42,212 nt of DNA from an uncultured Bacillota bacterium (GCA_900313725.1 OMSK01000099.1:1-42212), one strand, 5' to 3'; shown: positions 6,561 to 42,212, counted from the stretch's first letter. The notes: generated from the letters alone by a model not told the origin. A program made the numbers and translations.

Positions 6561-6568
6561 CTAAATAC

Positions 6569-14572: not shown

Positions 14573-14603
14573 AAAAAAAAGCTATATTTTTATAACTTTT
14601 TTC
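14573..14603 (-). terminator. Weak AU-rich intrinsic terminator ending cluster A
   Basis: Minus RNA AGUUAUA-AAAA-UAUAGCU (7 bp including one G-U) followed by U8, 13 nt after the NTase-NUDIX stop. Confidence 0.35.
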
Positions 14604-14615
14604 AGCATAAATAAT

Positions 14616-15806
14616 CTAAACCAATAATGAGGCTTTCTTTAAAACATCTTTTTGTTCATTATATGTAAGCATTTCTATTGCTTCTTCTAACAATAACCAC
14701 TTACCATCAACAAAATTTTCTGATATTTGAGGTCTTATTTTTTCCATTTTATCTATTTTAAATAAATATACTTTTATTTTTTTTTCATTTTCTTCAATAT
14801 CTGAAAAGTATCCATATTCACCTATTTTAGTAATAAAACTATGTTTATATAAACTTATATTAGTTTCCTCATATACTTCTCTAATTGCAGCTTCAATAAA
14901 TGTTTCATTCTTCTCTAAATGTCCTTTAGGTAAAACCCAGCAATTATTTATATCTTTTAAAACTGCAACATATTTTTTTCCTTTTAATTCACTTACAACT
15001 ACACCCATACAAGAAATGATTTTTTTGTTTTTTTCTTTTTTATTTTCTATCAATTTAACAATATTTTCAAACACAAATGTATTTATATCTAAAAATTGCT
15101 TAGTCGATTCAGATAATTTATGTTCACTTTTTAATACTTCTCTTATATTAAAATTCAATATTGATTTATCAAACATATTTTTTTCTTCACACAAATTACA
15201 AAAATCGTTAAATACATTTAAATAACCATATGAAAAAATTCCGTTTATATTTAAAATACATTTTAATAATACAACAAATTTTTTTATGTGATTTTTTGAT
15301 AATGAAATCTCATTATTACATAAAGAAATACAATTTCTTCTACAAGTATGAACAATACTAGGTAAATTATTTTTATCATTTTGCTGAATATCCAAATAAC
15401 TTTGTCTTAAAAAATAATTTTTACCATATAATGTTGGATCTAACCCAAGTTGTTCTTTTTCATATATCATTACCTTTGTTTTACTATCAATTAAATTATT
15501 TTTTACTTCATTTAAAGTATATATTGTGACTCCTATATGAATGTCGCAAGATTTATTTTTATTATCAATTATCATAAATTGTTTCACTTGATTAAAATCA
15601 TATTTATCTAAAACAATATATATATCTAAATCAGACCAAAGAGGTATTATTTCTGATTTACCACCAGAACCACCTAAAATAATACTTTTCAGATTTTTAT
15701 TAAATAATCGTTTTGCTAAATCTACTACTTCATCCAGTTTTACTTGATAATTATCAGGTAATCTAAGTGTAGAGTTATCAAAAACATGTTTATTCGATTT
15801 TGACAT
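14616..15806 (-). CDS. Pol-beta-fold nucleotidyltransferase domain fused to a NUDIX hydrolase domain
   Basis: N-terminus ILGGSGGKSEIIPLWSDLDIYIVL matches the G[SG]...DxD pattern of minimal NTases. C-terminus has the NUDIX box GHLEKNETFIEAAIREVYEETNI. RBS GGTGG lies before the ATG at 15806. Confidence 0.8.
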   Translation of the reverse strand: MSKSNKHVFDNSTLRLPDNYQVKLDEVVDLAKRLFNKNLKSIILGGSGGKSEIIPLWSDLDIYIVLDKYDFNQVKQFMIIDNKNKSCDIHIGVTIYTLNEVKNNLIDSKTKVMIYEKEQLGLDPTLYGKNYFLRQSYLDIQQNDKNNLPSIVHTCRRNCISLCNNEISLSKNHIKKFVVLLKCILNINGIFSYGYLNVFNDFCNLCEEKNMFDKSILNFNIREVLKSEHKLSESTKQFLDINTFVFENIVKLIENKKEKNKKIISCMGVVVSELKGKKYVAVLKDINNCWVLPKGHLEKNETFIEAAIREVYEETNISLYKHSFITKIGEYGYFSDIEENEKKIKVYLFKIDKMEKIRPQISENFVDGKWLLLEEAIEMLTYNEQKDVLKKASLLV

Positions 15807-16651
15807 TGTTCCACCACTTTCTTATAATCACTACTATTTTCAATATTTTTTTTGAAATTTTGAAATTTTATATTTAATCTATTAATAAAATAATTATAAT
15901 ATGTTTTTTTATCCTCATCACTAATGTTTTCTTCTGAAATTCTGTTTAATAAAAAAATGAATTGATCAATAAAGTCAGACATTCTAGTTATCTCCTTATT
16001 GAAACTATTTTCTAAGGTTATACTACCACTTCTTTTTATATAATTATATCCTATAAAAGGTATACTCCTAACAGTATGCGCTTTCATTATCAATAATGGA
16101 ATTAGTCCAAAATCCTCATGCGTTTTGTTTTCTAAAAAGAATAAATTATTATCAAAAAAAAGCTTTTTTTTAAAAAGATAACCCCATGGTGTAGCAAAAA
16201 TTTTTTGATGACTGCAAAATTTTCTAAGAACATCATTACCATTTTTTCGAGAAAATAGTTCTGATTCAAATCGTTCAGTACCATTACTACAGAAAAATCG
16301 AAATTTAATGATATCTTCATTATATTTAACTAATTCACTCAGTAAACCTTGATTTATATAATCATCTGAATCCACAAATAATATATATTCGCCAGAACTA
16401 TTTTGTACTCCAATATTTCGAGAAATACTCACTCCTTGATGACTATTTCTAATTATTTTAATTTTAACATCAATTTTAGTTTGAATATTTTCTATAATTA
16501 CTAAAGTATCATCTGTTGATCCATCATCGACAACAATAATCTCAAAATTTTTAAAATCTTGATTAATTATACTATTTAAACATTTTGAAATTGTAAATTG
16601 TGAATTAAATGTTGGAACAATAACTGAAATTTTTATGTTCTTTTTATACAT
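15740..16651 (-). CDS. Family 2 glycosyltransferase (GT-A)
   Basis: ISVIVPTFNS...EIIVVDDGSTDDT and VDSDDY (DxD). Paralogous to the N-terminal half of the 19403-20809 product. Confidence 0.9.
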   Translation of the reverse strand: MYKKNIKISVIVPTFNSQFTISKCLNSIINQDFKNFEIIVVDDGSTDDTLVIIENIQTKIDVKIKIIRNSHQGVSISRNIGVQNSSGEYILFVDSDDYINQGLLSELVKYNEDIIKFRFFCSNGTERFESELFSRKNGNDVLRKFCSHQKIFATPWGYLFKKKLFFDNNLFFLENKTHEDFGLIPLLIMKAHTVRSIPFIGYNYIKRSGSITLENSFNKEITRMSDFIDQFIFLLNRISEENISDEDKKTYYNYFINRLNIKFQNFKKNIENSSDYKKVVEQCQNRINMFLITLHLDYLIIIK

Positions 16652-17886
16652 TTAACTTTCACTTCTTTACTTTTAATATCATCACTGATTTCCGATAATT
16701 GATTTTTAAAATCTCCAACATTTCCATCATTATTTACAATATACGTAAATGGTGTATAAGAAGAATTATCATCAATAACTAATTCATTATTATAAATTGA
16801 TAATTTTTTTAAATTTAGCAAGCCAAATTTTTGTTTATTTCTATCTTTTTTTTCAACCATGTCAGCCACTTCATCTATTGTTATGCTTCGATTCTCTTTT
16901 AATTTCATATATTCACGATATACTCGATTATGATATGATGCTTCAATATAAATTAAATTTACATTATTTTTTAAAATTCTATATATACTCTTTATTGCAT
17001 CTATTCCATACAATGTGTCTAAAACAATAAATTCATTATCATAATGAGAAGAGCTAGTTAACAAAATAAAATCATACCAAAATCTATAAGAATCATTTTT
17101 TTCTTGCTCTTTCATCCACAGATGCTTTTCTAAATTTGAGCCAGAAGATAAATACATCTCATTTAATATATCTCTCATTTTTACATGAACTGAATTTGGT
17201 AAAAGATGTGTCAAATATTCAGAAGCAGTGCTTTTTCCAGATTCGGATACACCAGAAATAAAAATAAATTTTTGATTTTTATTAATGATGCTATCAATTA
17301 TTTTATTAAATACATTATTAATATCATCAACAGCATTTATAATTTGAATATTAGATTTTTTTATCATTTTTTTTGTGACATCATTTAATACTATTTGATA
17401 ATTATGATAATAATCATCATATGAATTAATTTTTGAATCATTTCTTTGTCGTAATCTTTCATTTAGCTTAGTTGTATCATCAATATTAAGAAATAATGAT
17501 AAGTTTTCACTATTTATTCCATATTTCTTCTTTGACATATTTATTTGATTATATATATCAAGATTATTGTATCCTCTCATAAGAAAATTAGCTAAAATAC
17601 GGCAATCAAAAGTAAAAACACCTTTATCATTAATAATTAACTGTTTTTCTTTTTTTATTGCTTCATCATCTCTATATTTTATTCCTCTATAAATTGTGTC
17701 ACAAAATTCTTCAAGTTTACTATCCAAAAACCACCATTTAAAAAAATCATCACCCCTTAAATTTGGAAAAATATTATAATAGCCTATATCATTTGAAAAA
17801 TAACCATAGGGAAAGCGATCCTTCAGTAATTTATATTGCGTTGTTTTGCCACTTCCATCTAAACCATTTAATGATATTTTATACAT
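16633..17886 (-). CDS. Tandem P-loop kinase (thymidylate-kinase-like module plus a second nucleoside/nucleotide-kinase-like module)
   Basis: Walker A 1, LNGLDGSGKTTQ, matches the GxDGxGKTTQ signature of dTMP kinases. Walker A 2, ISGVSESGKSTASEY, lies about 200 aa downstream. RBS AAGGAG. Confidence 0.7.
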   Translation of the reverse strand: MYKISLNGLDGSGKTTQYKLLKDRFPYGYFSNDIGYYNIFPNLRGDDFFKWWFLDSKLEEFCDTIYRGIKYRDDEAIKKEKQLIINDKGVFTFDCRILANFLMRGYNNLDIYNQINMSKKKYGINSENLSLFLNIDDTTKLNERLRQRNDSKINSYDDYYHNYQIVLNDVTKKMIKKSNIQIINAVDDINNVFNKIIDSIINKNQKFIFISGVSESGKSTASEYLTHLLPNSVHVKMRDILNEMYLSSGSNLEKHLWMKEQEKNDSYRFWYDFILLTSSSHYDNEFIVLDTLYGIDAIKSIYRILKNNVNLIYIEASYHNRVYREYMKLKENRSITIDEVADMVEKKDRNKQKFGLLNLKKLSIYNNELVIDDNSSYTPFTYIVNNDGNVGDFKNQLSEISDDIKSKEVKVKCIKRT

Positions 17887-18317
17887 TTTGTTATCTCCTT
17901 ATTATTACCATATTCCATAATAATTTTATCTCTTATTTCATGAGGCACTATATTTAATCCAGACATTTCGTTAATAGGTATTTCAATTGGAATATATAAT
18001 CCTCTATCTTTGTATTCATCAGAACTAAATTCTGGTCCATTTCCGGTTCCAAATGTTCCAGATATCCACTTACATTTGAAAAAATATGTTTTAGTATCTT
18101 TAAAATCTTCAATATATTTCATTTCCTCAACATCTACATTTATTCCTAATTCTTCAAGAACTTCTCTTTTTACTCCTTGTTCTAATATTTCATCTTCTTC
18201 TAAGCCACCACCTGGAAAAACATAATATATATTTTCTTTATTTCCATCAAATCTAACTCTTTTAATCAACAAAACTTTATTATCATGAATTACTATTCCA
18301 CGTACTCTTACATTCAT
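17868..18317 (-). CDS. NUDIX hydrolase
   Basis: NUDIX box GGGLEEDEILEQGVKREVLEELGI. RBS GAGGAGG. Confidence 0.9.
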   Translation of the reverse strand: MNVRVRGIVIHDNKVLLIKRVRFDGNKENIYYVFPGGGLEEDEILEQGVKREVLEELGINVDVEEMKYIEDFKDTKTYFFKCKWISGTFGTGNGPEFSSDEYKDRGLYIPIEIPINEMSGLNIVPHEIRDKIIMEYGNNKEITKCIKYH

Positions 18318-18321
18318 ATTT

Positions 18322-19413
18322 TTACCTCCTCAATTCATCTAAATTATCTATTAAATAATGTAAGTTATTATAATTATTATTTTTTAATTTATTATAAAAA
18401 TAATGAACTAAAAATATAATATAATAATAATCATCTTTATCAAATTTAGATATATTAAATATACACATTAAACGCATTACAATAAAATATATCAAATCAT
18501 CATATATATCAAAATCTTTAATAATTTCCAAAAATTTTAAAATATATTGTTTTCTAATACTAGTTACTTCTAAATAACCGTTAATTTCTATTAAATTACC
18601 ATTTCTATAATTAATTTTAGGTTTATAGTATTTATTTTTTTTACAAATTTCATCATGATTATAAAATGATTTTGGATGATATTTTGGACAAATATACTGA
18701 TCAAATATTAATATGGAAACAAGACATATTGCAAATTCACCTATCGCATAATTATATCCTAATAAACTTATATCAAAAAAATATGGTGTCGTTGAAATGT
18801 TTAAAGAATTATGATCACCTTGAGTTACAAAACATAAATGTTGCTTATTTTTTTGAAAATATTTTTTTGTTTCTTCTAAAATTTCACTTGTCGAAATACT
18901 TTGATAGCCATTAATTACTACTTTCTTGTTGAATTGTTTTTCATTATCATACCAATTAATTAATCTTGAATTTATCCTATCTTTAAAGAATGCATCTATA
19001 GGTGACATATCATTCCAAATTCTTTTTTTAGAGCTTTCATTATAAATAGATAAAATTTTATTCATTTTATTTTCATTATAGTTCATTTTAAAGTCATTCT
19101 TCACAAAATAATCATTTAATAATCCATCATTATTTTTTATTCCTAAATCATATTCATATATGATTAAGTATAAATCATTTTTTATATGATATGAATTCAA
19201 ATGTTTCTTTATTGGAAAAACTTTTGAATACAAATTAATTGCTTTCTCTTCCTTTATCATTTCCTGATTAGAAATAATTTTAAAGAATCTTTTTTTATTT
19301 TTTTCAAATAAAATACCATTAATAGAATTGTTTTGACAATTAATATTTTTTATTATAATATCTGGTGTAATACTATTTATTTCTTCCAATAATTTATTAA
19401 TATTATAATTCAT
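18322..19413 (-). CDS. APH/choline-kinase-fold phosphotransferase-like protein (divergent)
   Basis: FFKII (beta3 Lys) ...EEKAINLY (alphaC Glu). Catalytic-loop-like QGDHNSLN (Dx4N, with His of HxD replaced by Gln). FFDISLLGYNYAIGEFA resembles the metal-binding D...E/D segment. Confidence 0.55.
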   Translation of the reverse strand: MNYNINKLLEEINSITPDIIIKNINCQNNSINGILFEKNKKRFFKIISNQEMIKEEKAINLYSKVFPIKKHLNSYHIKNDLYLIIYEYDLGIKNNDGLLNDYFVKNDFKMNYNENKMNKILSIYNESSKKRIWNDMSPIDAFFKDRINSRLINWYDNEKQFNKKVVINGYQSISTSEILEETKKYFQKNKQHLCFVTQGDHNSLNISTTPYFFDISLLGYNYAIGEFAICLVSILIFDQYICPKYHPKSFYNHDEICKKNKYYKPKINYRNGNLIEINGYLEVTSIRKQYILKFLEIIKDFDIYDDLIYFIVMRLMCIFNISKFDKDDYYYIIFLVHYFYNKLKNNNYNNLHYLIDNLDELRR

Positions 19414-20809
19414 TTTTTATTCTAATCTCATCTATTATTTTAAAAATTTTTTCTGTTCTATCACCAGACATATCATAATAATCTAAATTATTCTTTTTAC
19501 AATATTTTTTTATTTGCTTAGAATTATTTATAACTAATTCACAATAATCCAACAATTCACTATTTGACAAGCTATTTGTCCAATCATTCTCCGTATCATT
19601 AGTTCTTATATCATTATACAATTGTTGCGGAGTGCCATCATAACCCAATATAATAATTATAAATTTATCCTTATTAAATTGTGCTAAAAATCTATCCATA
19701 TCTAAATAACAACCCTCTATAACATAATTTATATCAATAGTACGTTTAGTAATATGATTTAATGATCTTATATAGCTTGTGATAAATCCAGATACTTCAT
19801 CTAATAATTGAGAATTTCTACGATTATGATTAATATTTAATTCTGGCATTCCAAATTGAAATGCTGTAATAATCGAATCCAATGATATCATATTATAATT
19901 AAACTTATGTGAGATTTTTCTAGCCAACGTGCTTTTTCCAGATCTACTACAACCATATATTATTATATTTTTTCTTATTTTCATTTCTTTTTTTATGTCA
20001 TAAATACTGGATAATAATTTAGTAGTATATTTAGAAATTTTTTTTACATAAAACAAATAAAAATCTTTTTTATATTTTGTTTTTTCTCTTATAGCATACT
20101 CCATCAATCTGCGTACTACGTCATAGTAGCAGTAAACATTAAATAGATTTACTGAACCAGTTATTGAATTTTTACGTAATCGATAATTATAATATGGTTT
20201 ATCAATATAATACAAATTTTTTATACTACAAAGAAGTTTAATAACCCACTCTTCGTCCTCATGAACAATACCTTCTATAAAAAACAATTTATTTTTTAAA
20301 ATTATATCTCTTTTTACAATAAAACGCCATACTGTAAAAATAATTTTACTTTGTTTAATATAATTTAGTACTTCATTCATCTTTTTGTTATTTATTCTAG
20401 TATAATCTATTTCTCTATCATATAAATCTCTGGCATCATCTTCTCTTATAGTTTTGAAATTTGAGATATATGTTTCTTTTTTTGTTTTTTCAATTACATG
20501 AAAAATATAATTTAAACTATCTATATCAATATAATCATCACTATCTAAAAATAATATGTATTCCCCGTTAGAATTGTTTATACCTATATTTCTAGCTGCT
20601 GATACACCAACATGTTCTGTGCAGAATACTTTTATGTTATTATATTTCTTACAATATTCATTACATATAGTCCTAGTTTTATCTGTTGATCCATCATCAA
20701 CAACAATTATTTCAAAATCATTATAATCTTGATTTACAAGACTATCTAAACATTCAGAAATATATTTTTCTACATTATAAGCAGGTATAATAATTGAAAA
20801 TTTACTCAT
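19403..20809 (-). CDS. GT2 glycosyltransferase fused to a C-terminal P-loop kinase-like domain
   Basis: FSIIIPAYNV..EIIVVDDGSTDKT, LDSDDY and HEDEEW (GT2). After about 280 aa, Walker A IIIYGCSRSGKSTLARKI with a small adenylate/gluconate-kinase-like alpha/beta region. Confidence 0.85.
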   Translation of the reverse strand: MSKFSIIIPAYNVEKYISECLDSLVNQDYNDFEIIVVDDGSTDKTRTICNEYCKKYNNIKVFCTEHVGVSAARNIGINNSNGEYILFLDSDDYIDIDSLNYIFHVIEKTKKETYISNFKTIREDDARDLYDREIDYTRINNKKMNEVLNYIKQSKIIFTVWRFIVKRDIILKNKLFFIEGIVHEDEEWVIKLLCSIKNLYYIDKPYYNYRLRKNSITGSVNLFNVYCYYDVVRRLMEYAIREKTKYKKDFYLFYVKKISKYTTKLLSSIYDIKKEMKIRKNIIIYGCSRSGKSTLARKISHKFNYNMISLDSIITAFQFGMPELNINHNRRNSQLLDEVSGFITSYIRSLNHITKRTIDINYVIEGCYLDMDRFLAQFNKDKFIIIILGYDGTPQQLYNDIRTNDTENDWTNSLSNSELLDYCELVINNSKQIKKYCKKNNLDYYDMSGDRTEKIFKIIDEIRIKNEL

Positions 20810-25482: not shown

Positions 25483-25926
25483 TTATACCTCTAATTCATT
25501 ATAAACCTTATCCACTTCTTCTTTTTCTCCTTCAATAGCTACTACATTATAAACTTCTGGAGATTCATATTCATCTATTTCAAATTTAACATTATCTTTT
25601 TCATATATCTTTCTATTTCTAATTAAAGTAATATCTTTTTTATATTCTAGAAAATCTAATATAGAATTTATACTTTTTATATCATTAAATTCTAAAGGTA
25701 ATGATTCTTTTCTAATTTTTAAAATATCTTCTGTTAGATTATCTTCTTTAAAATCTAGAAACATTTTATTATCATTAATAGTTATTCTAGCCATAGTTTT
25801 ATTACTATTTCTATAAAGAGTTCTTGTTTGTTTTACTTTATCAATTAATTCATAGCCATTATTATTACAATAATCAATATATCTTTCTATACTTTCTACT
25901 TTAAAACTATATTCATATTCATTCAT
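25483..25926 (-). CDS. CYTH-domain protein (CyaB/ThTPase-like)
   Basis: N-terminal acidic beta strand EYEYSFKV and C-terminal VKFEIDEYESP..VVAIEGE resemble the CYTH ExExK ... LDxV..G.F.EIE pattern. The start is set at the ATG at 25926 (RBS AGGTGA) because the track start is a GTG. Confidence 0.5.
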   Translation of the reverse strand: MNEYEYSFKVESIERYIDYCNNNGYELIDKVKQTRTLYRNSNKTMARITINDNKMFLDFKEDNLTEDILKIRKESLPLEFNDIKSINSILDFLEYKKDITLIRNRKIYEKDNVKFEIDEYESPEVYNVVAIEGEKEEVDKVYNELEV

Positions 25927-25967
25927 AAATATCACCTATATATATTTTAACATATATAAGAAAAGTA

Positions 25968-28151
25968 TTAAACTTTCTTTAACACTTTTTCTTTATCAAC
26001 AAATTTTTGTAATGGTTCACATATTTTATCTGTATATATTACATCCAATTTATGAAGTGCTCTTGTTAAGGCTACATAAAGAAGTTTTAAATCTGCTGGA
26101 TTTTCTGAACTATATACTTTCTCATCTACATTATGTAAAATAACTGCATCAAATTCTAGACCTTTTGCTAAGGAATTAGAAATAGTTACTATTTCATTTC
26201 CTTTTTCAGTTATATCTGTATTTTCATCAATATTTGAAATAAATAATCCCTCAAATGATAAATCATCATTTAAATAGCTAGCTTGTAATGGATATTTACT
26301 TATAATACCAATAGTCTTATAACCTAATTCTTTATATTCTTCAATTCTATCTTTTATAGTAGTTACTAATGCTTCTTCGTTTACTTGTTCAAAAGAAACA
26401 TCTTCTCCACTTCTTACAGTTAATTCTGCAGGATTAACATCTAATTTTTTAGATATTTCATTAGCTACATTCATTATTTCACTAGTAGTACGATATGATT
26501 TATTAAACTCTAATACCTCACAATCACCTATTATATTTGATACACTATCCCATGAATTAATACCACGATAATCATATATTGATTGAGCAATATCTCCAAA
26601 AATACTAAATGAAGCATTTGGTAAGCATGCCTTTATAGTATAAAAATTAAATTCTCCTAAATCTTGAGCTTCATCAATAACTACATGACGATAATCATTT
26701 TCATATCCATCTAAACCTAATTTATATTTAATAAATAATAATGGTGTTAAATCTTCAAAATCAAATTCATTATTTTTATAATTATCAAGTGTTTCTTTTT
26801 TAAGTTGTTTCATATCTTCATAATTATATATATTATAACTATCAATATTATTAATAAATTTTTTATATAATTTAATTGGTTCAGTTTTGTATTTATTAAT
26901 ATATTTTCTTAAACTAGATTGGCAATTTTTACGTAATTCATCTCTAGCAATTTTAATCTCATCTCTACATTTTTCTACTGTATTAGTAAGTTTACTTTGT
27001 TCAAACGCCTTTTTAGTTTGTTCATTAAAACTAAAACTTATTTCTTGCATATGATTTTCAATATATGCTGATGAAATTAAAACAAAACGATCAATTGCTT
27101 TATCAAAGTTATTAGTATCATCTATTGCAGTTTCTAATAATACTCTTATTTTTGATTTATCTAATATTTTAAATCCATTTATTACTAAATCATCATTAGC
27201 AATATTCATTATATAATCATCAACATATTTATCAATCATATCTTTAAATTTTAATGAACTTTTGAATTTAGATATACCACTATTTGCTTTACCACTTATA
27301 ATTTGAATTTGTTTTTTTATAGAATTTTTAATATTTAATTTAGGTTCACCAATCATATTTTTTACAAATGTTTCATAAGTTGTTTCTTCTATTTTATCAA
27401 CATCCAAATCAGGTAATACACCTTTAACATATTTTAAGAAAACATCATTTGGTCCTATTACTAAGTATTGACTGTTTTTTACTTTAATTCTATATTGATA
27501 TGCTAAATAAGCTATTCTATGTAATGCAATTGTTGTCTTTCCTGAACCAGCTACTCCTTGTACAATTATATTCTTATTAATTGGTTGTCTAATTGCAGCA
27601 TTTTGTTCAGATTGAATTGTTGCAACAATATTAGTTAATCTAGCATCATTATTTTCATTTAAATATTTTTGAAGTAAAACATCATTACTTACTAAATCAA
27701 CGTCATAATAATCTTTAAGCTTACCATTTTCAATATCAAATTGTCTTTTTAATAATAATTCTACATCAACTTGACCTTTTGGACTGTTATAAGATGTTTC
27801 ACCTAAATCAGAATCATAATATAAATTTGAAACAGGTGCTCTCCAATCTGTAACAAGCATGTTTAAATCATCATCCATCATAGTATATTTACCAATATAA
27901 TGTGTTTGAATGTTTCCCTCTTCATCTTTATAATCTATACGAGCAAAATAAGGTTTTTCAACACCATTTTCTAATGGTTTCATTTTATGACAAATTGCAT
28001 CATAAGCTGTACGAAAGTGTTCTGGATGATGTTTATAATGCCCTAATATATCATAGTATTCATCCATCATCGCATCAAGATGTTCTTTTGAATAACTTGT
28101 CAAGCAATCAAAATGTTCTTGTTCCTTTTTTAATTCTATTTCTTTTTCCAT
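25968..28151 (-). CDS. helD: HelD-type UvrD-like helicase (RNA polymerase recycling ATPase / helicase IV-like)
   Basis: N-terminal YFARIDY..YIGK..WRAPVSNLYY typical of HelD. Walker A VQGVAGSGKTTIALHRIAYL. DEAQD motif (VVIDEAQD). C-terminal 2A-domain motifs (KGLEFD, YVALTRA). Confidence 0.85.
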   Translation of the reverse strand: MEKEIELKKEQEHFDCLTSYSKEHLDAMMDEYYDILGHYKHHPEHFRTAYDAICHKMKPLENGVEKPYFARIDYKDEEGNIQTHYIGKYTMMDDDLNMLVTDWRAPVSNLYYDSDLGETSYNSPKGQVDVELLLKRQFDIENGKLKDYYDVDLVSNDVLLQKYLNENNDARLTNIVATIQSEQNAAIRQPINKNIIVQGVAGSGKTTIALHRIAYLAYQYRIKVKNSQYLVIGPNDVFLKYVKGVLPDLDVDKIEETTYETFVKNMIGEPKLNIKNSIKKQIQIISGKANSGISKFKSSLKFKDMIDKYVDDYIMNIANDDLVINGFKILDKSKIRVLLETAIDDTNNFDKAIDRFVLISSAYIENHMQEISFSFNEQTKKAFEQSKLTNTVEKCRDEIKIARDELRKNCQSSLRKYINKYKTEPIKLYKKFINNIDSYNIYNYEDMKQLKKETLDNYKNNEFDFEDLTPLLFIKYKLGLDGYENDYRHVVIDEAQDLGEFNFYTIKACLPNASFSIFGDIAQSIYDYRGINSWDSVSNIIGDCEVLEFNKSYRTTSEIMNVANEISKKLDVNPAELTVRSGEDVSFEQVNEEALVTTIKDRIEEYKELGYKTIGIISKYPLQASYLNDDLSFEGLFISNIDENTDITEKGNEIVTISNSLAKGLEFDAVILHNVDEKVYSSENPADLKLLYVALTRALHKLDVIYTDKICEPLQKFVDKEKVLKKV

Positions 28152-28217: not shown

Positions 28218-29315
28218 TCATGTTTCCCTTTCAAATTTTTTACTTTTTATTAACGACTTGTTATATAATTTTCTATATATTAAACCATGTATATTTTGAC
28301 AATATCCATTATAAATTATATCACACGACGTAAATTCATCATATTCAATTTCTTGATTACAATTTAAAAATGAATAATCTATTTTAGATAATTTAACATA
28401 TGGTACTCTTTTTTCTTTAATTGCTTGTGTGTGTAATTCTGCTAGTGACATATTGTATAATTTTTTTAAATATAAATTTATCAAAAATGAAGATGATTGA
28501 AAACGTGGATTAATTTCCATAAAATATACTTTGTTATTAGCTAAAACATAATCAATACCCATTATTCCTAAATATCCTTCATTTTTTAATTTTTTTGCTA
28601 TTTTTAAACTATATTTTTCAATTTCTTTTACAATTGTTTTATCTAAATATTGTGGATAAATAAAATCACCACCAACATATTTAAATCTATTATCAACAAT
28701 CTCTATTAGTTGTGCTGATATAGGAAATAAATCTATATCTTGTTTTCCAATAATCATAGTTACATTTAATGGTGTATTTGACAAATATTTTGATATAGAA
28801 AATTCACCAAATAAATTTAGTTTTTTAAATAGTTTTTTATCTTTTATTAAGTATGTATTTTCTCCACCAGAACCACTTCTACCTTGTATTACAAGATTTT
28901 CACTATAATCATTAAATATTTGTTCATAATTATCTTCAGTTATTTCGCATATTTTATAATCTAAAAGATTAACATCATTCTTTAAGAATTCTCTAATTAA
29001 AAACTTATTGTTAATAAAATCTAATAGTTCACTGTTATCATTATAAACAATGTTACAATTAGGAATATTTTTACATAAATCATAAATTTTCTTATTAAAT
29101 ATTACAAACTCAGCATCTTTATGTTGAGAAATATTTTTAGTTAAATAGTCTTTGTAATTATTCATAAATATTTCACTACTTATATCATCTAATTGTGTTG
29201 ATGAATAAAAAATATTTCCAGGTTCTCCAGTTGGATAAAGAGTAATTGAACCATCAAAATAATTTTCATTACAAATTGCATTATTAGATTTAAGCCCTAC
29301 ATAATACTTTTTCAT
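28218..29315 (-). CDS. ATP-grasp domain protein
   Basis: GSGGEN glycine-rich loop, then GIMGIDYVLANNKVYFMEINPRFQSS, the typical ATP-grasp Mg/ATP-binding C-terminal motif (E.NPR). Confidence 0.8.
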   Translation of the reverse strand: MKKYYVGLKSNNAICNENYFDGSITLYPTGEPGNIFYSSTQLDDISSEIFMNNYKDYLTKNISQHKDAEFVIFNKKIYDLCKNIPNCNIVYNDNSELLDFINNKFLIREFLKNDVNLLDYKICEITEDNYEQIFNDYSENLVIQGRSGSGGENTYLIKDKKLFKKLNLFGEFSISKYLSNTPLNVTMIIGKQDIDLFPISAQLIEIVDNRFKYVGGDFIYPQYLDKTIVKEIEKYSLKIAKKLKNEGYLGIMGIDYVLANNKVYFMEINPRFQSSSFLINLYLKKLYNMSLAELHTQAIKEKRVPYVKLSKIDYSFLNCNQEIEYDEFTSCDIIYNGYCQNIHGLIYRKLYNKSLIKSKKFERET

Positions 29316-29928
29316 TTAATACACCCTCTATACAATCAGTTTCTTGTAATCTATTTCGAACTATTCTAAACATTTCAGGTAAATCAACTTCATCCGTATA
29401 AATAGTCATTGTAGCAAATTGTTCAACAATATTTCCATACTCTTTTTCAAGTTTTATTGCATTAGCAACTCTATTAATTATTTGTTCATAAGTATGATTT
29501 CGGCTATTTGAACTTATTCTTGATATAATACCACCTTTAATATTTCTATATTTCAAATTTATTAATATAATGTTGAAACTTTTATTTAACTCCATAATTC
29601 TTTCAATATCTCTATATGAAACAAACAAAACAATATTATTATCAATATAATTTTTTTCAAAATCATCTTTAAGTATTCCATAAAAATTACCATGATCTTT
29701 ATCTATAATATCTCCATCACCACTGGAAATTAAAAACTTATTATTATCATATAATTCAGCATATTCATCATGTAACAAATATCTATAAAATCCATCTTGA
29801 TCATCACTTCGTCTACCTCTTGTTGTACAATGCATAGGAATAACATAACCTAAATTTTTTTTCAAATAATCTCCTAATGTTGTTTTTCCAGCACCACTTG
29901 GTCCCGTAATCATAACAATATTATTCAT
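29290..29928 (-). CDS. Guanylate-kinase-like P-loop kinase
   Basis: ITGPSGAGKTTL Walker A followed by TTRGRRSDDQDGFYRYL (GK signature TTRxxRxxExxGxxYxF, slightly divergent). Confidence 0.8.
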   Translation of the reverse strand: MNNIVMITGPSGAGKTTLGDYLKKNLGYVIPMHCTTRGRRSDDQDGFYRYLLHDEYAELYDNNKFLISSGDGDIIDKDHGNFYGILKDDFEKNYIDNNIVLFVSYRDIERIMELNKSFNIILINLKYRNIKGGIISRISSNSRNHTYEQIINRVANAIKLEKEYGNIVEQFATMTIYTDEVDLPEMFRIVRNRLQETDCIEGVLNEKVLCRA

Positions 29929-31960
29929 AATTCATCTCGCAAAAATTTTTTAATATAATATAATATCTTTTATAATAATCTTTCTTTTGACGTCTAGAAA
30001 ATAAATCAATCGTTCCAATATTATGTAAATAAAATTTTTCCAATAATATTTTGCATAAATAAAATTTTATCATAACATCAAAATCATCTTTGCTATAAGT
30101 TTTATCATATTTTAGATATTCATCACGTAATTGTTGATACTTAGTCTTACAAATATAATTATTATTTACAAAAAATTTTACTACCACTACTGCAAAGTCA
30201 TATATCTTAGCACACATAGTAGTTTGATCAAAATCAATTATATATTTATTTTTACCGTCATCAATTAAATTTTCTTTTGATATATCACCATGATTTATAT
30301 ATTTTTGTCTTAAGATATTATTATTTTTTAAAGAATCAAAAACATTTAAAACATAATCTAATTCTTTTGAAAAGTATTTTTTAATTTTATCGGATGAATA
30401 TATATTTTCATAATATTTATAACAATCATTTATTAAATAATCTGTACCATCATATTTTCTATCACATAACAATAGATTTAATATGTATTTATACATTCCC
30501 TTATCTTCTTTTGTATTTTCTATATATTCAAAAATATTATATATCATTCCATTTATTTTCAAAGGGCAATTATTTATTGGTTTTGAAACTTTAATGTTAT
30601 TTGTCAAAAACATATTGTATAGTTTTTCTGATAATTCAAAATTTGGTATATTTACATATTTCTTAATAATATAATTTTTATTAACAGTTTCAACTTTATA
30701 AACATAATTGGCTACTCCACCGATTTCACGTTTATATTTTTTTATTTTATAATTATCTGTAACATTACTTAAAACATCTTCTAATTCTTTTTTACTTATT
30801 TTTTTTAATTTATAATTGATTATCGTTTTATCATATAATGATAACATATCATTACATACTTTTGTTGGATTATACAATTCATTTACTCTCTTAATATTTC
30901 TTTTATTAATTGGTTCTTTTTTAAACAATTCAAGTTTATTAATTATTTTGTTTGCCAAATCATCACTATCACCAGATATATACAATGAACTATCATCATC
31001 CAACATTTCTTTCATACCAGAATTTTCGCTACCAACTATTTGTAAACCCGTAATCATTGATTCTAAAACAACATATGGAAAATTATCAAATAAAGATGGA
31101 AATACACCAACCTTTGCTTCATTTAAATATTTATTAATTTTATAATTTTCTATTTGACCCAAAAATTCTATATTATCTAAAAATCTTTTATCTACTATTT
31201 CTTTAACATATTTAATAGTAGAAATATTCTTATTATTTCTAATAGTATCTTTTCCTATAAACTGTATTTTTAAATTAGGATATTTAACAAAAATTGTATT
31301 CAATGACTCTGCTAATGTAATTACACCTTTTCTTTCTTCCAAACTACCTACAAATACTATTTTATTTTGTTTTTTTATTTTTTTATCAAAATAAAAATTT
31401 GTAATATTTGCAGGATTAGGTGTTACCATAATTTCTGATTCTTTGATATCAAAATTCTGAACAATTAATCTTTTTAATGCTTCTGAACAACATGTAACAA
31501 AATCAGCTTTCATTATCATTTCATTTTCCCATTTTAACATAAGATCTTTTACCTTACCAAAATCATTATTGTTATATCTTAACCATACTTTTAACGGAGT
31601 ATGTAGTCTTACTACTAATGGTACTTTTCTATATTTTTCAAAAAATACTGTTTCAGCACCCCAATCAGGTACTTCAAGAATGTCAAATTGTTTTTCCTTT
31701 TGTAATTTTCTTAGTAAATCACATACTCTTTCTCTATATTCAATATAATTTTGTACTTTATCTTCTGTTTCTTTAACATAAATTCGAAAAATTTTAACAC
31801 CATTTTCAATATACTCTTTATCTTCATATAGTCCTCTACATATAACTGTAACCTGATTTCCAAGTTTAACATATTCTTCAGCACAATTCTTTTGGTATGT
31901 TGCTATTCCACCAAAATTTGTTTCCTCTGGATATTCCTCATGAACTAAACATATTTTCAT
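29921..31960 (-). CDS. GT4 (GT-B) glycosyltransferase fused to a C-terminal APH/choline-kinase-fold kinase
   Basis: N-terminal half: FGGIATYQ and a GT4 E-x7-E-like segment (FPSLFDNFPYVVLESMITG). C-terminal half: GGVANYVYKV glycine loop, IIKKY Lys, Brenner motif HGDISKENLI, then IIDFDQ and IYDFA. The start is set at the ATG at 31960 (RBS GGTGGTGA) because the track start is a TTG. Confidence 0.85.
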   Translation of the reverse strand: MKICLVHEEYPEETNFGGIATYQKNCAEEYVKLGNQVTVICRGLYEDKEYIENGVKIFRIYVKETEDKVQNYIEYRERVCDLLRKLQKEKQFDILEVPDWGAETVFFEKYRKVPLVVRLHTPLKVWLRYNNNDFGKVKDLMLKWENEMIMKADFVTCCSEALKRLIVQNFDIKESEIMVTPNPANITNFYFDKKIKKQNKIVFVGSLEERKGVITLAESLNTIFVKYPNLKIQFIGKDTIRNNKNISTIKYVKEIVDKRFLDNIEFLGQIENYKINKYLNEAKVGVFPSLFDNFPYVVLESMITGLQIVGSENSGMKEMLDDDSSLYISGDSDDLANKIINKLELFKKEPINKRNIKRVNELYNPTKVCNDMLSLYDKTIINYKLKKISKKELEDVLSNVTDNYKIKKYKREIGGVANYVYKVETVNKNYIIKKYVNIPNFELSEKLYNMFLTNNIKVSKPINNCPLKINGMIYNIFEYIENTKEDKGMYKYILNLLLCDRKYDGTDYLINDCYKYYENIYSSDKIKKYFSKELDYVLNVFDSLKNNNILRQKYINHGDISKENLIDDGKNKYIIDFDQTTMCAKIYDFAVVVVKFFVNNNYICKTKYQQLRDEYLKYDKTYSKDDFDVMIKFYLCKILLEKFYLHNIGTIDLFSRRQKKDYYKRYYIILKNFCEMNYE

Positions 31961-31980
31961 TTTATCACCACCTAATAATT

Positions 31981-32014
31981 CACATCTAACTATATAATAT
32001 AAGACACATCTAAC
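31981..32014. repeat. Perfect 10-nt direct repeat CACATCTAAC x2 (24-nt period) just upstream of the GT4-kinase start
   Basis: Copies at 31981-31990 and 32005-32014. They account for the repeated IVRC in the spurious N-terminal extension of the track ORF. Confidence 0.7.
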
Positions 32015-32113
32015 AATTTCAAATATAAATAATTTATACAATTATAACTAAAAGTTATAACGCACTTGCATTTTTTTTAAAATATTGTATAATACTCAAA
32101 AGGACGTGAGTAT

Positions 32114-38248: not shown

Positions 38249-38740
38249 TTATTTATTTAAATATTTTTTACATTTTATAAAGAAAGCCATTTGGTTTTCA
38301 TTTAATTCCTTTTTATTAACCATATCTTCTAATTCTTCCATAGAAAACCATCTTACTTCTGTTAGTTCTTCTTTTTGAATATTTAATTTATCTATATCTA
38401 AATCTAATTTAGTATAGTACATTCTATAACAATCTACTAAATCACATCCAGAGTCAAATAGAATTATTTCATTATTAGAAATATCTATTCCTAATTCTTC
38501 TTTTACTTCTGTAATTATTCCTTCATCTGGTGTTTCACCTGATTTTGGATGACCACCAGTTACTCCCCAGTCTCCTCCTTTAGAAGGGACTCTTTTTTGC
38601 ATTAGAAATTCACCTTTACTATTTTCAATAGCAATCATAACTACCATTGGATAATAACCATCTGGTATTTTATCACCTTTATAGTAAGTTAAATCAGTTT
38701 TATTACTATCTTTATCATATAAGTCTCTTAATTCTCTCAT
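38249..38740 (-). CDS. NUDIX hydrolase
   Basis: NUDIX box GGHPKSGETPDEGIITEVKEELGI. ATGA overlap with the upstream GNAT-ASCH gene. Confidence 0.9.
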   Translation of the reverse strand: MRELRDLYDKDSNKTDLTYYKGDKIPDGYYPMVVMIAIENSKGEFLMQKRVPSKGGDWGVTGGHPKSGETPDEGIITEVKEELGIDISNNEIILFDSGCDLVDCYRMYYTKLDLDIDKLNIQKEELTEVRWFSMEELEDMVNKKELNENQMAFFIKCKKYLNK

Positions 38741-39567
38741 ATTATCACCTCAAATATTTCAAATATTACTTTAGTATTATCATTAAAATTAGGATCAATT
38801 TGTTTAAAAAATTCATTATGTACTTTTTTATAATATTCTAAACTTCTATTTTCTTCTCCTTCTAAGTAAGCTAAATCTTTATTTATATTTTTAAATTCAG
38901 TTACTATTACATCAGTAGTTCTAATCATACAAGCATCAGTATTATCATCATACATAATAATTGATTCATCACCTATTTTAGAAATATTATCACTTAGTAG
39001 TGATGTAGTAGCAGTTTTTTTACCAGACAATATTAATTCTATTAATTTATTATTATCCATACCAAACTTCCATCTTTCAATATCTTTAACATATACTGAT
39101 ATTATTTCTTTATTACCTATTGTATCATTACCTTCATAATCATATAGTTTTTTAAATCCACATTTAGTATAACATCTAATAGCTCTTTCATTTCTTTTAA
39201 ATGGTCTAAGTACTATTAAATCTGCATGCAATTCAAAGAATATTTTTCTATTTATTAGATTAATTACTTCACTACCTATTCCTTTATTTAATAGATTTTC
39301 TCCTATAAATAAATCATATTCATAAATATTTTTGTAATTATCTATCTTGCCATCATATTTATATATTTGAATTAATCCAATAGGAATATTTTCATATTCA
39401 ATAATTAATACTTCTTGTTTACCTATTTTATTTTTATATTTATTAACGATTTCATCATAAGATAATATTCTTTGTTCAAACCATTCATATACTTGTCTTT
39501 TACTACACCAATTATATATTAATTTATAATCTTCTTCACTATCAATTAAATTTCTAAAACTTATCAT
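38737..39567 (-). CDS. AAC(6')-Ie-like GNAT acetyltransferase fused to an ASCH domain
   Basis: LIIEYENIPIGLIQIYK, FIGENLLNKGIGSEVINL and VLRPFKRNERAIRCYTKCGF parallel the IIEYNNVPIGYGQIYK / FIGEPNYWSKGIGTRYI / [20 protein letters not shown] segments of AAC(6')-Ie as I recall them. The C-terminal ~110 aa begin LILSGKKTATTS, typical of ASCH. Confidence 0.75.
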   Translation of the reverse strand: MISFRNLIDSEEDYKLIYNWCSKRQVYEWFEQRILSYDEIVNKYKNKIGKQEVLIIEYENIPIGLIQIYKYDGKIDNYKNIYEYDLFIGENLLNKGIGSEVINLINRKIFFELHADLIVLRPFKRNERAIRCYTKCGFKKLYDYEGNDTIGNKEIISVYVKDIERWKFGMDNNKLIELILSGKKTATTSLLSDNISKIGDESIIMYDDNTDACMIRTTDVIVTEFKNINKDLAYLEGEENRSLEYYKKVHNEFFKQIDPNFNDNTKVIFEIFEVII

Positions 39568-39568
39568 A

Positions 39569-40081
39569 TTAACCTCTCGTTTTTATTCTAACTACTACTC
39601 CATCAACTTGCTTTTCAAATTTATTCCATGTTTTTTCTTCAATAATTTCAAATCCTACAGATAGAAATAAATCTAATGTTCCTTCTCTATATTTTTCAAA
39701 AGTATCATATAAATATTCTATATTATTTTTATAAGCTTCTTTAACTAGTAAATTTAAGGCTTCTTTAGAATATCCAAGACCTCTATATTTTGCTTCTATT
39801 AGTATTCCACAATCATATCTATCTTCAGATTTATCATATTGATAATTAACATATCCAACGTATTTATCATTCACTTTTATATAAGCAAAATATCTATTTT
39901 CACTTATTCTTTTTTGATATGTCTTTTCCCATTTAGATTCTGGAAAATCAATACAACCTGTATCATAATGGTATCCCTCATATGATACATCATATCCAGC
40001 ATTATAACTCATTGTATTTGGATCTTCTTCTAACTGTTTTTCATAATAATACTCTTCTAATTTAGGTACTACTAATTCCAT
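39569..40081 (-). CDS. GNAT-family N-acetyltransferase
   Basis: GILIEAKYRGLGYSKEALNLLVKEA (acetyl-CoA motif A, R/QxxGxG/A pattern). The start at 40081 has RBS AAGAAGGTG. Confidence 0.8.
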   Translation of the reverse strand: MELVVPKLEEYYYEKQLEEDPNTMSYNAGYDVSYEGYHYDTGCIDFPESKWEKTYQKRISENRYFAYIKVNDKYVGYVNYQYDKSEDRYDCGILIEAKYRGLGYSKEALNLLVKEAYKNNIEYLYDTFEKYREGTLDLFLSVGFEIIEEKTWNKFEKQVDGVVVRIKTRG

Positions 40082-40083
40082 AT

Positions 40084-40566
40084 TTACACCTTCTTTATCA
40101 TATCTATACATCTAGAGTGATAATTACCCTTTGTATAGAAATCTATTGCATGTTTATTATAAGCAAATACTTCTATATTTATATATTCACATCCAATATT
40201 TTTTAAATATTCCTCCATTATAATCAAAAGATTTTTTCCAACTCCTTTTGATCTAGTATTTTTAGTTACTATTAATTCAGTTATTCTTCCTTTTCTAGGA
40301 CATTTATAATCTAAATAATCTTCTTCTTCATATTTAACTACTAATCCCATTATTAAACCTATAGCTTTATCATTTTCAATTGCTATATAACATTTACCTT
40401 CATTTTCTTCTACTTCTTTTAAATCAATATCTAACATTAATTCTCTATAATCTTTACCTACTTGGTCTAAATGATCTTCATCTATTGATACAATATATTC
40501 TTCTAGTTCTACAAGTAAGTCTTTACAATCTTCTTTATATTTTTCATTATATTCTATTATTTCCAT
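40084..40566 (-). CDS. GNAT-family N-acetyltransferase
   Basis: ELIVTKNTRSKGVGKNLL motif A and VFAYNKHAIDFYTKGNY motif B. Confidence 0.85.
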   Translation of the reverse strand: MEIIEYNEKYKEDCKDLLVELEEYIVSIDEDHLDQVGKDYRELMLDIDLKEVEENEGKCYIAIENDKAIGLIMGLVVKYEEEDYLDYKCPRKGRITELIVTKNTRSKGVGKNLLIIMEEYLKNIGCEYINIEVFAYNKHAIDFYTKGNYHSRCIDMIKKV

Positions 40567-41096
40567 TTAATCTCCTCTAAGTTATTTATATAATTATTAA
40601 ATTCTTTAAATGATATATTAGGTTCCACTTCATAAAATTCCGTTACTGGTCTAGGTGTTCCACCGGATAATTCTACATAATAATTATTTATTTTATTTAT
40701 AGCTTCTTCTAACGTTTTAAACTCATATATACCTATTCTATCTGGATTTGGATGTTCTATTTGATATACTTTATCATTTAAATAATATAGTACAAAACAA
40801 TGCATATGTTCTTCGTCTTCTACATCATTAAAATCATTTGGTTCATATATTCTTGTACAAAACATTTTATTTTCTATATTTAATTTATCAAGTAAATAAT
40901 GCATTAAATATACTTGTTCTATACATGTACCTATTTTATGTTCTAATGTTTGTTCTATTGAAGAAGTTCTATATAATTTTCTAAAGTTTTTTAATTCATT
41001 AATATGTTCATTATTATCTATATCCAACCATCCATATTTTATATTATCCATGAATAATAAGATATCTTTTGGAGTTTTAATATCTTCTATTTTCAT
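40557..41096 (-). CDS. Hypothetical protein, possibly a transglutaminase-like cysteine peptidase fold
   Basis: The GTCIEQVYLMHYLL ... HMHCFVLYY ... QIEH spacing resembles the Cys-His-Asp/Glu core of the transglutaminase-like superfamily. Weak call. Confidence 0.4.
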   Translation of the reverse strand: MKIEDIKTPKDILLFMDNIKYGWLDIDNNEHINELKNFRKLYRTSSIEQTLEHKIGTCIEQVYLMHYLLDKLNIENKMFCTRIYEPNDFNDVEDEEHMHCFVLYYLNDKVYQIEHPNPDRIGIYEFKTLEEAINKINNYYVELSGGTPRPVTEFYEVEPNISFKEFNNYINNLEEIKWK

Positions 41097-41098
41097 AA

Positions 41099-41569
41099 TT
41101 ACCTCTCAAATACAAACACATCTTCCAAATCTGTAAATGTGTATGTTTTATAATTATTATTTGTATATTCTTTTATAATATTTCTCCAAAAATTATATGC
41201 TATATTATTATTATCCATAGGTTGTACTTCCCAATTTTTATGAAGATTAAAAGCTTTATAAGCTGCTTCTTTTCCTATATGATTTCTTCTATATTGTGGT
41301 AATACTAAAAATTCAGCTATACAGTATCCTTCTTTTAATACTTTTAGATGTTGATTTATCATTACAAATCCCGCTATTTTATTATCATATTTTATAAAAT
41401 AAACTTCTCTTGTTTTATCCGTAAAATAATTATTAAACCATTTATAATCAAATAGACATTCATCATTTATAATATTATCAATGTAAAAACTTCCATCATA
41501 TAGAGCAAATTGTAATAAATTGTATAACTTATCTTTATCTTCTATTTTTACTTTTTCTAATTTTATCAT
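41099..41569 (-). CDS. GNAT-family N-acetyltransferase
   Basis: EFLVLPQYRRNHIGKEAAYKAF motif A; 156 aa. RBS AGGAGG. Confidence 0.75.
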   Translation of the reverse strand: MIKLEKVKIEDKDKLYNLLQFALYDGSFYIDNIINDECLFDYKWFNNYFTDKTREVYFIKYDNKIAGFVMINQHLKVLKEGYCIAEFLVLPQYRRNHIGKEAAYKAFNLHKNWEVQPMDNNNIAYNFWRNIIKEYTNNNYKTYTFTDLEDVFVFER

Positions 41570-41765: not shown

Positions 41766-42212
41766 TTAATATTTAGATAAATCACCTACTGTATCAAGTA
41801 GTAATATTATTTCTTTTGCGACTGCAGTAGATAATTCTTCATACTTAGAATGTAACTTATTATATTCAGAACTATCTATAATAGTTTGTCTTAGTTCATC
41901 TACTTTAATATATCTTAAATCAAAATCACCTATTACCTCATCATCTGTATAATTAGTATTATCTCTATTAGGTAATTCATTTGTATGAATAACATAATAA
42001 TATATTAATAATTTTTTAGATTCTTCTTTTTTATATTTAGTATATAAAGAAATTGGTTCTATATCTTTTAATTCCATTTCTATTCCTGCTTCTTCTTTTA
42101 TTTCTCTAGAAAGGGTTACTAAAAGATCTTCATTATTTTCAACATGACCACCAATAAATTGATATGTATCATATGAATGACCCATTAATATTTCATTATT
42201 ATCATTTATAAG
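41766..42212 (-). CDS. NUDIX hydrolase, 5'-partial (reading frame stays open to the window end)
   Basis: NUDIX box GGHVENNEDLLVTLSREIKEEAGI. Only 11 aa precede it from the track's Met, and the frame upstream (LINDNNEIL) has no stop before position 42212, so the true start is probably outside the window. Confidence 0.85.
   Translation of the reverse strand, partial: LINDNNEILMGHSYDTYQFIGGHVENNEDLLVTLSREIKEEAGIEMELKDIEPISLYTKYKKEESKKLLIYYYVIHTNELPNRDNTNYTDDEVIGDFDLRYIKVDELRQTIIDSSEYNKLHSKYEELSTAVAKEIILLLDTVGDLSKY

Follow-up and report, generated by a model that had tools for sequence, protein, structure and literature searches.

The CotS and YtaA kinases, which have the APH/choline-kinase (CAK) fold, are strictly co-inherited and clustered with glycosyltransferases of family GT4 (CotSA and YtcC) and with nucleotide-sugar genes, including a GalU homologue (Scheeff et al. 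2010, PMC2860764). Here, we describe a locus in which a GT4 glycosyltransferase (GT) and a kinase of this fold are carried by one polypeptide. The locus, cluster B, lies in a stretch of 42,212 nt from an uncultured Bacillota bacterium (GCA_900313725.1 OMSK01000099.1:1-42212), the whole of which was analyzed and is referred to as the window; with a GC content of ~22%, it is very AT-rich. Cluster B encodes the GT4-kinase fusion, a guanylate-kinase-like (GK-like) P-loop protein and an ATP-grasp enzyme, and it had first been noticed when the DNA was inspected without database searches (the sequence-only reading). We found that these genes recur in related genomes together with genes for a Nudix hydrolase and for HelD, an RNA-polymerase recycling ATPase. 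The enzymes of cluster B probably serve to make or modify a compound that is a phosphorylated sugar or resembles a nucleotide.

The N-terminal half of the fusion matched the Pfam families Glyco_transf_4 and Glycos_transf_1 at 67.6 and 69.5 bits, respectively, where the gathering scores are 28.5 and 26.4. Among 23 diverse homologues, the motifs GGIATY, RLHTPL, EERKG and D292-x7-E300 were invariant. The last of these is a variant of the GT4 E-x7-E motif, while EERKG contains the Arg/Lys phosphate-binding pair (R210/K211). Sucrose-phosphate synthase 6KIH was the top solved relative of the GT half (E 1.6e-19), followed by BshA, GlgA, PglA and MshA, and several of the solved relatives glycosylate small acceptors that are phosphorylated or carboxylated. 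In NCBIfam, the GT half stayed far below the cut-off of every model, including the one with the fullest coverage, GlgM (TIGR02149; 53 versus 302 bits), and MshA (30 versus 462 bits).

The C-terminal half had been described in the sequence-only reading as a bona fide-looking APH/ChoK kinase. The Pfam family APH scored 22.1 bits on the fusion, against a gathering score of 23.2, and reached 47.9 and 53.8 bits on the relatives P0266 and P0271. A search of the PDB with the sequence of the kinase half alone returned nothing meaningful, and the family profile gave only catalytic-loop matches. An AlphaFold2 model of this half (pLDDT 92.6) displayed a bilobal kinase fold with a helical small-molecule substrate subdomain, and Foldseek matched it with probability 1.0 to LicA, the type-II homoserine kinase HSK-II, APH(9), NahK and YtaA (TM 0.57-0.73, identity 10-19%). 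APH(2''), APH(4), AmiN and FN3K were also among the structural matches. The beta-3 lysine K433, the catalytic HxDxxxxN loop (H557-G-D559...N564) and the Mg-binding D576-F-D578 were invariant in the same 23 homologues, and A417/N418 are on family-invariant columns. Since the catalytic residues are invariant in such diverse members, the kinase half is not a pseudokinase. As judged from the model, it is a CAK-fold small-molecule kinase, and both halves of the fusion have retained their catalytic residues. The description as an APH/ChoK kinase thus held, and the motifs that had been quoted for the three proteins (those of APH/ChoK, GPSGxGK, TTRxxR and EINPRFQSS) are all present and on family-invariant columns.

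At 90% clustering, the fusion has more than 120 full-length relatives. Their identity is 44-58% and their length ~675 aa, nearly all are unnamed, and the family names in the databases are generic only ('glycosyltransferase', 'ATP-grasp domain-containing protein'). The fusion is carried by ~40 GTDB species, all of them uncultured low-GC 'Bacilli/Mollicutes/Tenericutes/Clostridiales' metagenome-assembled genomes from animal and human guts, and the hosts are reduced-genome gut Bacilli of humans, rabbits, ruminants and chickens. Since MreC and MreD are encoded in the window, its host is a walled rod. When 1.84 billion cluster representatives were searched exhaustively with the profile, only 64 proteins scored E <= 1e-10; these include stand-alone kinases of ~300 aa, proteins with two kinases in tandem and a single GT4-kinase-kinase protein. 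Furthermore, six genomes have one gene for the GT (~393 aa) and another for the kinase (~298 aa), the two overlapping by 17-38 nt. Genetic-code artefacts were ruled out as the origin of these split versions by their different frames, their own ATGs and their TAA, TAG or TGA stops. The kinase is fused to, or overlaps with, the GT4 gene in all loci. Among the more distant relatives, L047 has the order GT4-kinase-kinase, Nudix, and L048 the order GT4, tandem kinase, Nudix, P-loop kinase. That the halves are fused in some genomes and adjacent in others is good evidence that both activities work together. Together with the invariant residues and the GT4-kinase-kinase relatives, the six split pairs uphold the earlier suggestion that the GT and the kinase form a functional unit. 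No relatives were present among the 2.9 million viral contigs of IMG/VR, and the PHROG matches were generic only. No plasmid record covered more than 57% of the fusion, and the matches were confined to the GT half. The locus has no defence, phage or plasmid signal.

The GK-like protein scored 23.4 bits with Pfam Guanylate_kin, below the threshold of 25.2, while its family profile detected the solved guanylate kinases of the PDB at E 5e-15. It shares with the guanylate kinase family, which includes the ribose 1,5-bisphosphate phosphokinase PhnN, the P-loop, the TTRxxR clamp, the lid arginines and the fold. In comparison with yeast guanylate kinase 1GKY, the phosphate clamp is kept, R37/R40/Y48-50/Y83 corresponding to R38/R41/Y50/Y78 of the yeast enzyme. 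In contrast, the guanine-recognition residues E69, S80 and D100 of the yeast enzyme are replaced by a hydrophobic residue, a hydrophobic residue and Ser, respectively, and the GK-like protein carries a 7-residue inserted loop. The NCBIfam models TIGR03263 and PhnN gave 45.9 versus 160 bits and 17.7 versus 156 bits, respectively. A true guanylate kinase (EC 2.7.4.8) was ruled out because the guanine-recognition residues are replaced and the TIGR03263 cut-off is missed. On the basis of the alignment, we consider the protein unable to recognize guanine, and the retained clamp together with the replaced residues fits a kinase of a phosphorylated non-GMP substrate.

The ATP-grasp protein matched ATP-grasp_3 (64.9 versus 23.2 bits), and a weak match to ATPgrasp_ST, which is associated with sugar transfer, was found in the same Pfam scan. 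E267-x-N269-P-R271-x-Q273 is on family-invariant columns. With its model (pLDDT 92.4), the closest Foldseek matches were PurK (E 8e-17), biotin carboxylase, PurD and PurT, and the PurK/PurT/PurD branch of the ATP-grasp fold acts largely on phosphoribosyl substrates. The equivalog cut-offs were missed for purK (16.9 versus 318 bits), purT (19.2 versus 502 bits) and biotin carboxylase PRK06524 (50.9 versus 684 bits). The family comprises 137 proteins, about half of which have a Nudix domain fused at the N-terminus. In the window, the Nudix gene is displaced ~6 kb upstream of the fusion. Its product scored 59 bits with Pfam NUDIX and agrees with the Nudix box GX5EX7REUXEEXGU (family consensus GSALKGEtSLEAAvREvKEELGI). 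As it clusters with the Nudix-ATP-grasp proteins and is 40% identical to the L048 Nudix protein, it is the ortholog of the Nudix module that lies beside, or is fused to, the ATP-grasp enzyme in related loci.

Open reading frames (ORFs) were called and clustered in all 42 related loci, and linkage was counted in the 27 that had enough flanking sequence. The commonest gene order was fusion, GK-like, sometimes an ORF of ~70 aa, Nudix-ATP-grasp (a fused gene for ~540 aa or two genes) and helD. The GK-like gene accompanied the fusion in 22 of the 27 loci and the ATP-grasp gene in 12, a Nudix gene was present within 6 kb in 20, and helD was adjacent in 14. GK-like and Nudix genes were both present in 18 loci, all four partners in nine and none in three. 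When all 42 loci were considered, the GK-like gene was within 4 kb of the fusion in 32. These counts substantiate the GK-like and ATP-grasp partners that had been proposed at the outset, while the Nudix and helD genes had been overlooked, the former because it is displaced in the window. In a variant sub-clade (L022-L030), the fusion occurs without GK-like or Nudix genes nearby, and GalU is encoded two to three genes upstream of it; GalU is near the fusion in four loci. The ~70-aa ORF is conserved, has no family match and was seen between the GK-like and Nudix genes in seven loci (for example, L002 12669-12875 and L018 12674-12892). It is absent from the window, where those genes are reported to overlap.

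The helD product matched the HelD_BACSU model NF041464 over residues 53-716 with 375 bits (E 4e-112; cut-off 419). A gap of 66 nt, free of terminator-like sites, separates it from the ATP-grasp gene upstream. In related loci, the adjacency of helD holds at fusion identities as low as 32% (median 45%), while all other flanking genes differ. Directly downstream of helD, at 25483-25935, lies a gene for 150 aa with a weak match to class IV adenylate cyclases and CYTH proteins (TIGR00318, 27 versus a cut-off of 58 bits). The gene string may therefore encode a further protein that handles nucleotide triphosphates.

The features of cluster B and its partners are listed in Table 1. ORF calling reproduced exactly the coordinates and overlaps of the three cluster B genes that had been given earlier, the overlap being 8 nt between the GK-like and fusion genes and 26 nt between the ATP-grasp and GK-like genes. 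The ATG of the fusion at 31960 is preceded by the ribosome-binding site (RBS) AGGTGGTGA at 31973-31965. An alternative upstream TTG start would give a product of 706 aa, and the recorded protein P0001 is identical to the 679-aa product rather than to this longer version. None of the cluster B proteins has a transmembrane-like or signal-like stretch, the maximum 19-residue hydropathy being 1.47. A promoter and terminator scan of the window was uninformative at its GC content (77 promoter-like sites versus 72 expected from shuffles), and Rfam detected no riboswitch or leader 5′ of the fusion (gathering scores across the window; E <= 1 in the 5′ region). A shadow ORF of 109 aa (30816-31145, plus strand) runs antisense to the fusion gene and 'recurs' in five loci only because the sense gene is conserved.

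Table 1. Features of cluster B and its partner genes, in window coordinates
Feature	Position	Strand	Length and evidence
GT4-kinase fusion gene	29921-31960	-	679 aa; ORF
GT4 half (GT-B, retaining type), residues 1-385	30806-31960	-	Pfam, invariant motifs, PDB relatives
Kinase half, residues ~395-679	29924-30778	-	AlphaFold2 model, Foldseek, invariant residues
GK-like gene (guanylate-kinase-fold P-loop kinase)	29290-29928	-	212 aa; family profile, alignment, linkage
ATP-grasp gene (PurK/PurT/PurD/biotin-carboxylase structural class)	28218-29315	-	365 aa; Pfam, model, Foldseek
Nudix hydrolase gene	38249-38740	-	163 aa; Pfam NUDIX, clustering with Nudix-ATP-grasp proteins
helD (HelD-type RNA-polymerase recycling ATPase)	25968-28151	-	727 aa; NCBIfam HelD_BACSU
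Divergent intergenic region upstream of the fusion	31961-32113	.	Holds the RBS and a candidate -35/-10 pair (32022-31994, just inside)

Our preferred, though tentative, interpretation is that these genes specify a clade-specific cytoplasmic small-molecule pathway, in which the bifunctional enzyme would glycosylate and phosphorylate the same soluble substrate. It builds on the folds, the intact catalytic residues, the lost guanine recognition, the linkage of the genes and the soluble nature of their products, from which we infer the substrates, the order of the steps and the product. The kinase half would transfer a phosphate from ATP to a hydroxyl of a sugar-like small molecule, and the GT4 half would then move a hexose, probably glucose from UDP-glucose, onto the same molecule, as in the case of sucrose-phosphate synthase, MshA and GlgM with their phosphorylated acceptors. 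The GK-like protein could subsequently place a second phosphate on a non-GMP phosphomonoester to give a diphosphate, comparable to PhnN and MfnE acting on non-nucleotide substrates, and the Nudix hydrolase might cut the diphosphate linkage, either as a step of the pathway or as editing. Lastly, the PurK/PurT-like ATP-grasp enzyme, which about half of the genomes encode, usually as a fusion with Nudix, may join a carboxylate to an amine carried by an intermediate of the phosphoribosyl or nucleotide type. Such a pathway would yield either a phosphorylated glycoside or a sugar derivative linked to a nucleotide. This interpretation is supported by the kinase fold, which matches small-molecule kinases, in combination with the GT relatives that act on small anionic acceptors. 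Further support comes from GalU near the fusion of the variant sub-clade, from the linkage to Nudix, GK-like and ATP-grasp genes, and from the lack of transmembrane segments.

Several points weigh against such a pathway. No substrate can be named, and all structural matches are at the superfamily level only (TM 0.6-0.73, 10-19% identity). GT4 enzymes also use lipids, proteins and polymers, and the similarity to sucrose-phosphate synthase lies mostly in the donor-binding C-terminal domain. Since the sub-clade L022-L030 has no GK-like or Nudix gene nearby, the fusion either works without them or the genes lie elsewhere, as does the Nudix gene of the window. In addition, a plain metabolic pathway leaves the conserved adjacency of helD unexplained.

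The precedent of the spore kinases suggests a different role, namely the maturation of a surface or spore-surface glycan in a cotSA-cotS-like manner. The GT4 half would build, and the kinase half phosphorylate, a glycan on a protein or polymer inside the cell, the ATP-grasp enzyme would add an amino acid, and no exporter would be needed because the glycan is assembled intracellularly. We regard this as unlikely, although the co-inheritance of GT4 enzymes and CAK kinases (PMC2860764) speaks for it, as do several features of the GT half. Its best matches on Bacillus plasmids are CotSA-class GT4s, followed there by cotS and a P-loop ATPase; the CotSA-class GT4 aligns with it end to end (24% identity, E 1e-14), and both have the same top two NCBIfam models. 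YtaA and HSK-II rank among the top structural matches of the kinase half, which is obligately linked to a COG0438-class (GT4) glycosyltransferase, as spore kinases are. The weak ATPgrasp_ST match, GalU near the fusion in four loci and an mreCD-M23-M50-L21 leader order in the window that resembles mreCD-spoIVFA-spoIVFB-rplU are also in line with a glycan. However, the CotS model did not match the fusion (E <= 0.01) and gave the stand-alone orthologue of its kinase 30 bits against a cut-off of 172.7, where a genuine CotS reaches 298 bits; hhalign against CotS returned a probability of 0.2%. By this value and the missed TIGR02906 and TIGR02905 cut-offs, the kinase half was ruled out as a CotS, YtaA or YutH spore kinase. 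Moreover, the P-loop proteins of the two systems are unrelated, the M50 and M23 proteins of the window match no SpoIVFB or SpoIVFA model, the cotS cluster lacks Nudix, GK-like kinase and helD genes, and no sporulation hallmark, including SASP and a Spo0A motif, was present in 0.85 Mb of clade sequence, which is a small sample. The B. cereus plasmid NZ_CP053953 (L051) carries its cotSA-cotS cluster at 1726-10127, with a 246-aa 'AAA family ATPase' two genes past cotS. In the window, the L21 leader (Rfam RF00559, 51 bits) is at 891-958 on the minus strand, after the radC-mreC-mreD-M23-M50 peptidase genes at 1102-4434 on the same strand.

The helD gene, kept in 14 of the 27 loci down to 32% fusion identity while other flanks vary, invites two further explanations, both of which we deem improbable. 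According to one, cluster B is a resistance or detoxification operon against an RNA-polymerase-targeting or nucleoside-like natural product, which the enzymes would inactivate while HelD frees the blocked polymerase. Known drug-modifying GTs belong to GT1 and not to GT4, and it is not evident what a GK-like kinase and a Nudix hydrolase would contribute to inactivating a drug. In Firmicutes, HelD has a housekeeping function, and the locus is not mobile, with no plasmid or viral relatives. On the other hand, many antibiotic kinases, namely APH(9), APH(2''), APH(4) and AmiN, are among the top structural neighbors of the kinase half, and genes for GNAT, Nudix and kinase proteins abound in the window. 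In actinomycetes, the HelD-like HelR is co-regulated with enzymes for the glycosylation and phosphorylation of rifamycin, although the same study did not find RAE-associated HelD clusters in Firmicutes (bioRxiv 10.1101/2021.05.10.443488). Rifampin phosphotransferase also has an ATP-grasp domain (PMC4844700). The other explanation, a long shot as well, is that RNA polymerase has a nucleotide-like ligand, glycosylated and phosphorylated, which the enzymes produce or break down, and that the helD linkage is functional in this sense. The ligand might be an endogenous signal, a non-canonical initiating nucleotide or an RNA-polymerase-targeting natural product that is inactivated while HelD removes the stalled polymerase. 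Very improbable, finally, is a role in phage defence or biological conflict, with nucleotides or nucleic acids as the targets of the GT and the kinases. Phage-host conflict often involves nucleotide kinases and Nudix enzymes, and faint matches were seen to Pfam GT4-conflict (19 bits versus a cut-off of 26) and, in relatives, to TCAD9. Conversely, PADLOC returned nothing for the fusion and the ATP-grasp protein and only weak P-loop noise for the GK-like protein, and the viral searches described above gave no relatives. Throughout the clade, a single copy of the locus keeps its synteny with a housekeeping gene, unlike the patchy defence islands.

Some neighboring genes of the window deserve mention. 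At 38737-41569 and 41766-42185 there is a run of four or five GNAT acetyltransferase genes, with a GNAT-ASCH fusion at 38737-39567 among them, followed by another Nudix gene. In total, six Nudix genes are present in the window besides Ham1 and several P-loop kinases, and small enzymes for modification or house-cleaning are unusually dense here. A RhuM/Fic-domain protein and a 918-aa hybrid histidine kinase with two receiver domains (8186-9130 and 9258-12014, respectively) are unrelated to cluster B. The locus L045 represents a near-identical strain, whose ATP-grasp protein is identical and whose fusion, GK-like and helD genes have the same order and product lengths. Upstream, it has a pair of genes for a GT61 enzyme and an APH-family kinase, and thereby adds a third GT-kinase pair. 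Between helD and Ham1, it has three extra genes that are not in the window, encoding 183 aa, a 109-aa pyrophosphatase fragment and a 256-aa PNP_UDP_1 protein. The differences, which are covered by its regions 656-2747 and 13393-15501, represent strain-level variation in further GT-plus-kinase and nucleoside genes.

The window also contains a second locus of similar composition, cluster A (14616-20809), which, in the sequence-only reading, might act in one pathway with cluster B. Cluster A encodes a GT2 enzyme fused to a P-loop (AAA_18) domain, an unknown protein of ~360 aa, a Nudix protein, a 417-aa double P-loop kinase and a GT2 enzyme, so that the pairing of a kinase-fused GT with a separate kinase proposed for it is indeed present. 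It recurs in L049 (3415-9694) beside uppS, cdsA and rseP, with the P-loop kinases as two genes and without cluster B within 10 kb. Among 5.8 billion proteins, its GT2-P-loop fusion has only ~10 full-length relatives, versus more than 120 for the fusion of cluster B; one relative in another genome sits amid typical glycopolymer genes. None of the cluster A genes was found in the flanks of the 42 loci related to cluster B. Cluster A is thus an independent conserved module, roughly tenfold rarer than cluster B, and the idea of one pathway is not supported: the two have the theme of GT, kinase and Nudix in common, but not the distribution. The related claim that neither cluster has a transmembrane protein was correct for cluster B, but a neighbor of cluster A is the membrane protein Pr6Pr (13866-14525).

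Every fold in cluster B is known, and the linkage of GT4 enzymes to CAK kinases has precedent. The combination of a fused enzyme, a non-GMP partner of the guanylate kinase fold, a Nudix-ATP-grasp fusion and a conserved link to helD is one that we have not found described; a literature search gave nothing on the GT4-kinase fusion or its operon. If cluster B makes a distinct phosphorylated glycoside or nucleotide derivative, this would be a lineage-specific metabolite of a common, unstudied gut group, and the coupling of GT4 enzymes and CAK-fold kinases, first noticed in spore-coat clusters and long without explanation, could be studied in the fusion as a model that is soluble, joined in one chain and catalytically intact. 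A functional helD linkage would tie small-molecule chemistry to the recycling of RNA polymerase, and a ligand of RNA polymerase as the target would make this the first HelD-centered metabolite or resistance operon in Firmicutes.

How cluster B compares with known systems can be stated as follows. TreS-Pep2 and NahK/AmgK likewise couple a carbohydrate-active enzyme to an APH-fold sugar kinase, and NahK is a top structural match, but the partner in TreS-Pep2 is a GH13 isomerase and here a GT4 enzyme. Membership of the TreS-Pep2/GlgE pathway was ruled out, maltokinase being outside the top 50 structural matches and TreS or GlgE (GH13) not being among the recurrent neighbors. Sucrose-phosphate synthase, MshA and GlgM resemble the GT half as GT4 enzymes that glycosylate phosphorylated small acceptors. 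Sucrose-phosphate synthase, which supplied its best solved relative, is often fused to a domain that handles the phosphate of the acceptor; that fused partner is phosphatase-like, whereas it is a kinase here, and the scores of the GT half are far under the family cut-offs. The actinomycete RAE regulon also deploys a HelD-like protein, HelR, alongside enzymes that glycosylate and phosphorylate, and an ATP-grasp domain is present in one of these. There, the genes are linked by a shared regulatory element and not in an operon, and none was found in Firmicutes. The RAE enzymes Rgt and Rph are a GT1 enzyme and a PEP-synthase-like kinase, as opposed to the GT4 enzyme and CAK kinase of cluster B. TreS-Pep2, WaaG/WaaP and NahK, which the sequence-only reading had listed as precedents, serve as analogies only, and the closest documented parallel is cotSA-cotS (PMC2860764). 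In cotSA-cotS and ytcC-ytaA, as in cluster B, GT4 and CAK-fold kinase follow each other directly and are co-inherited, with a GalU homologue and a P-loop ATPase near and no exporter. These are two genes there and one polypeptide here, the kinase here is not of the CotS/BSK kind, and its partners in cluster B are a GK-like kinase, a Nudix hydrolase, an ATP-grasp enzyme and HelD.

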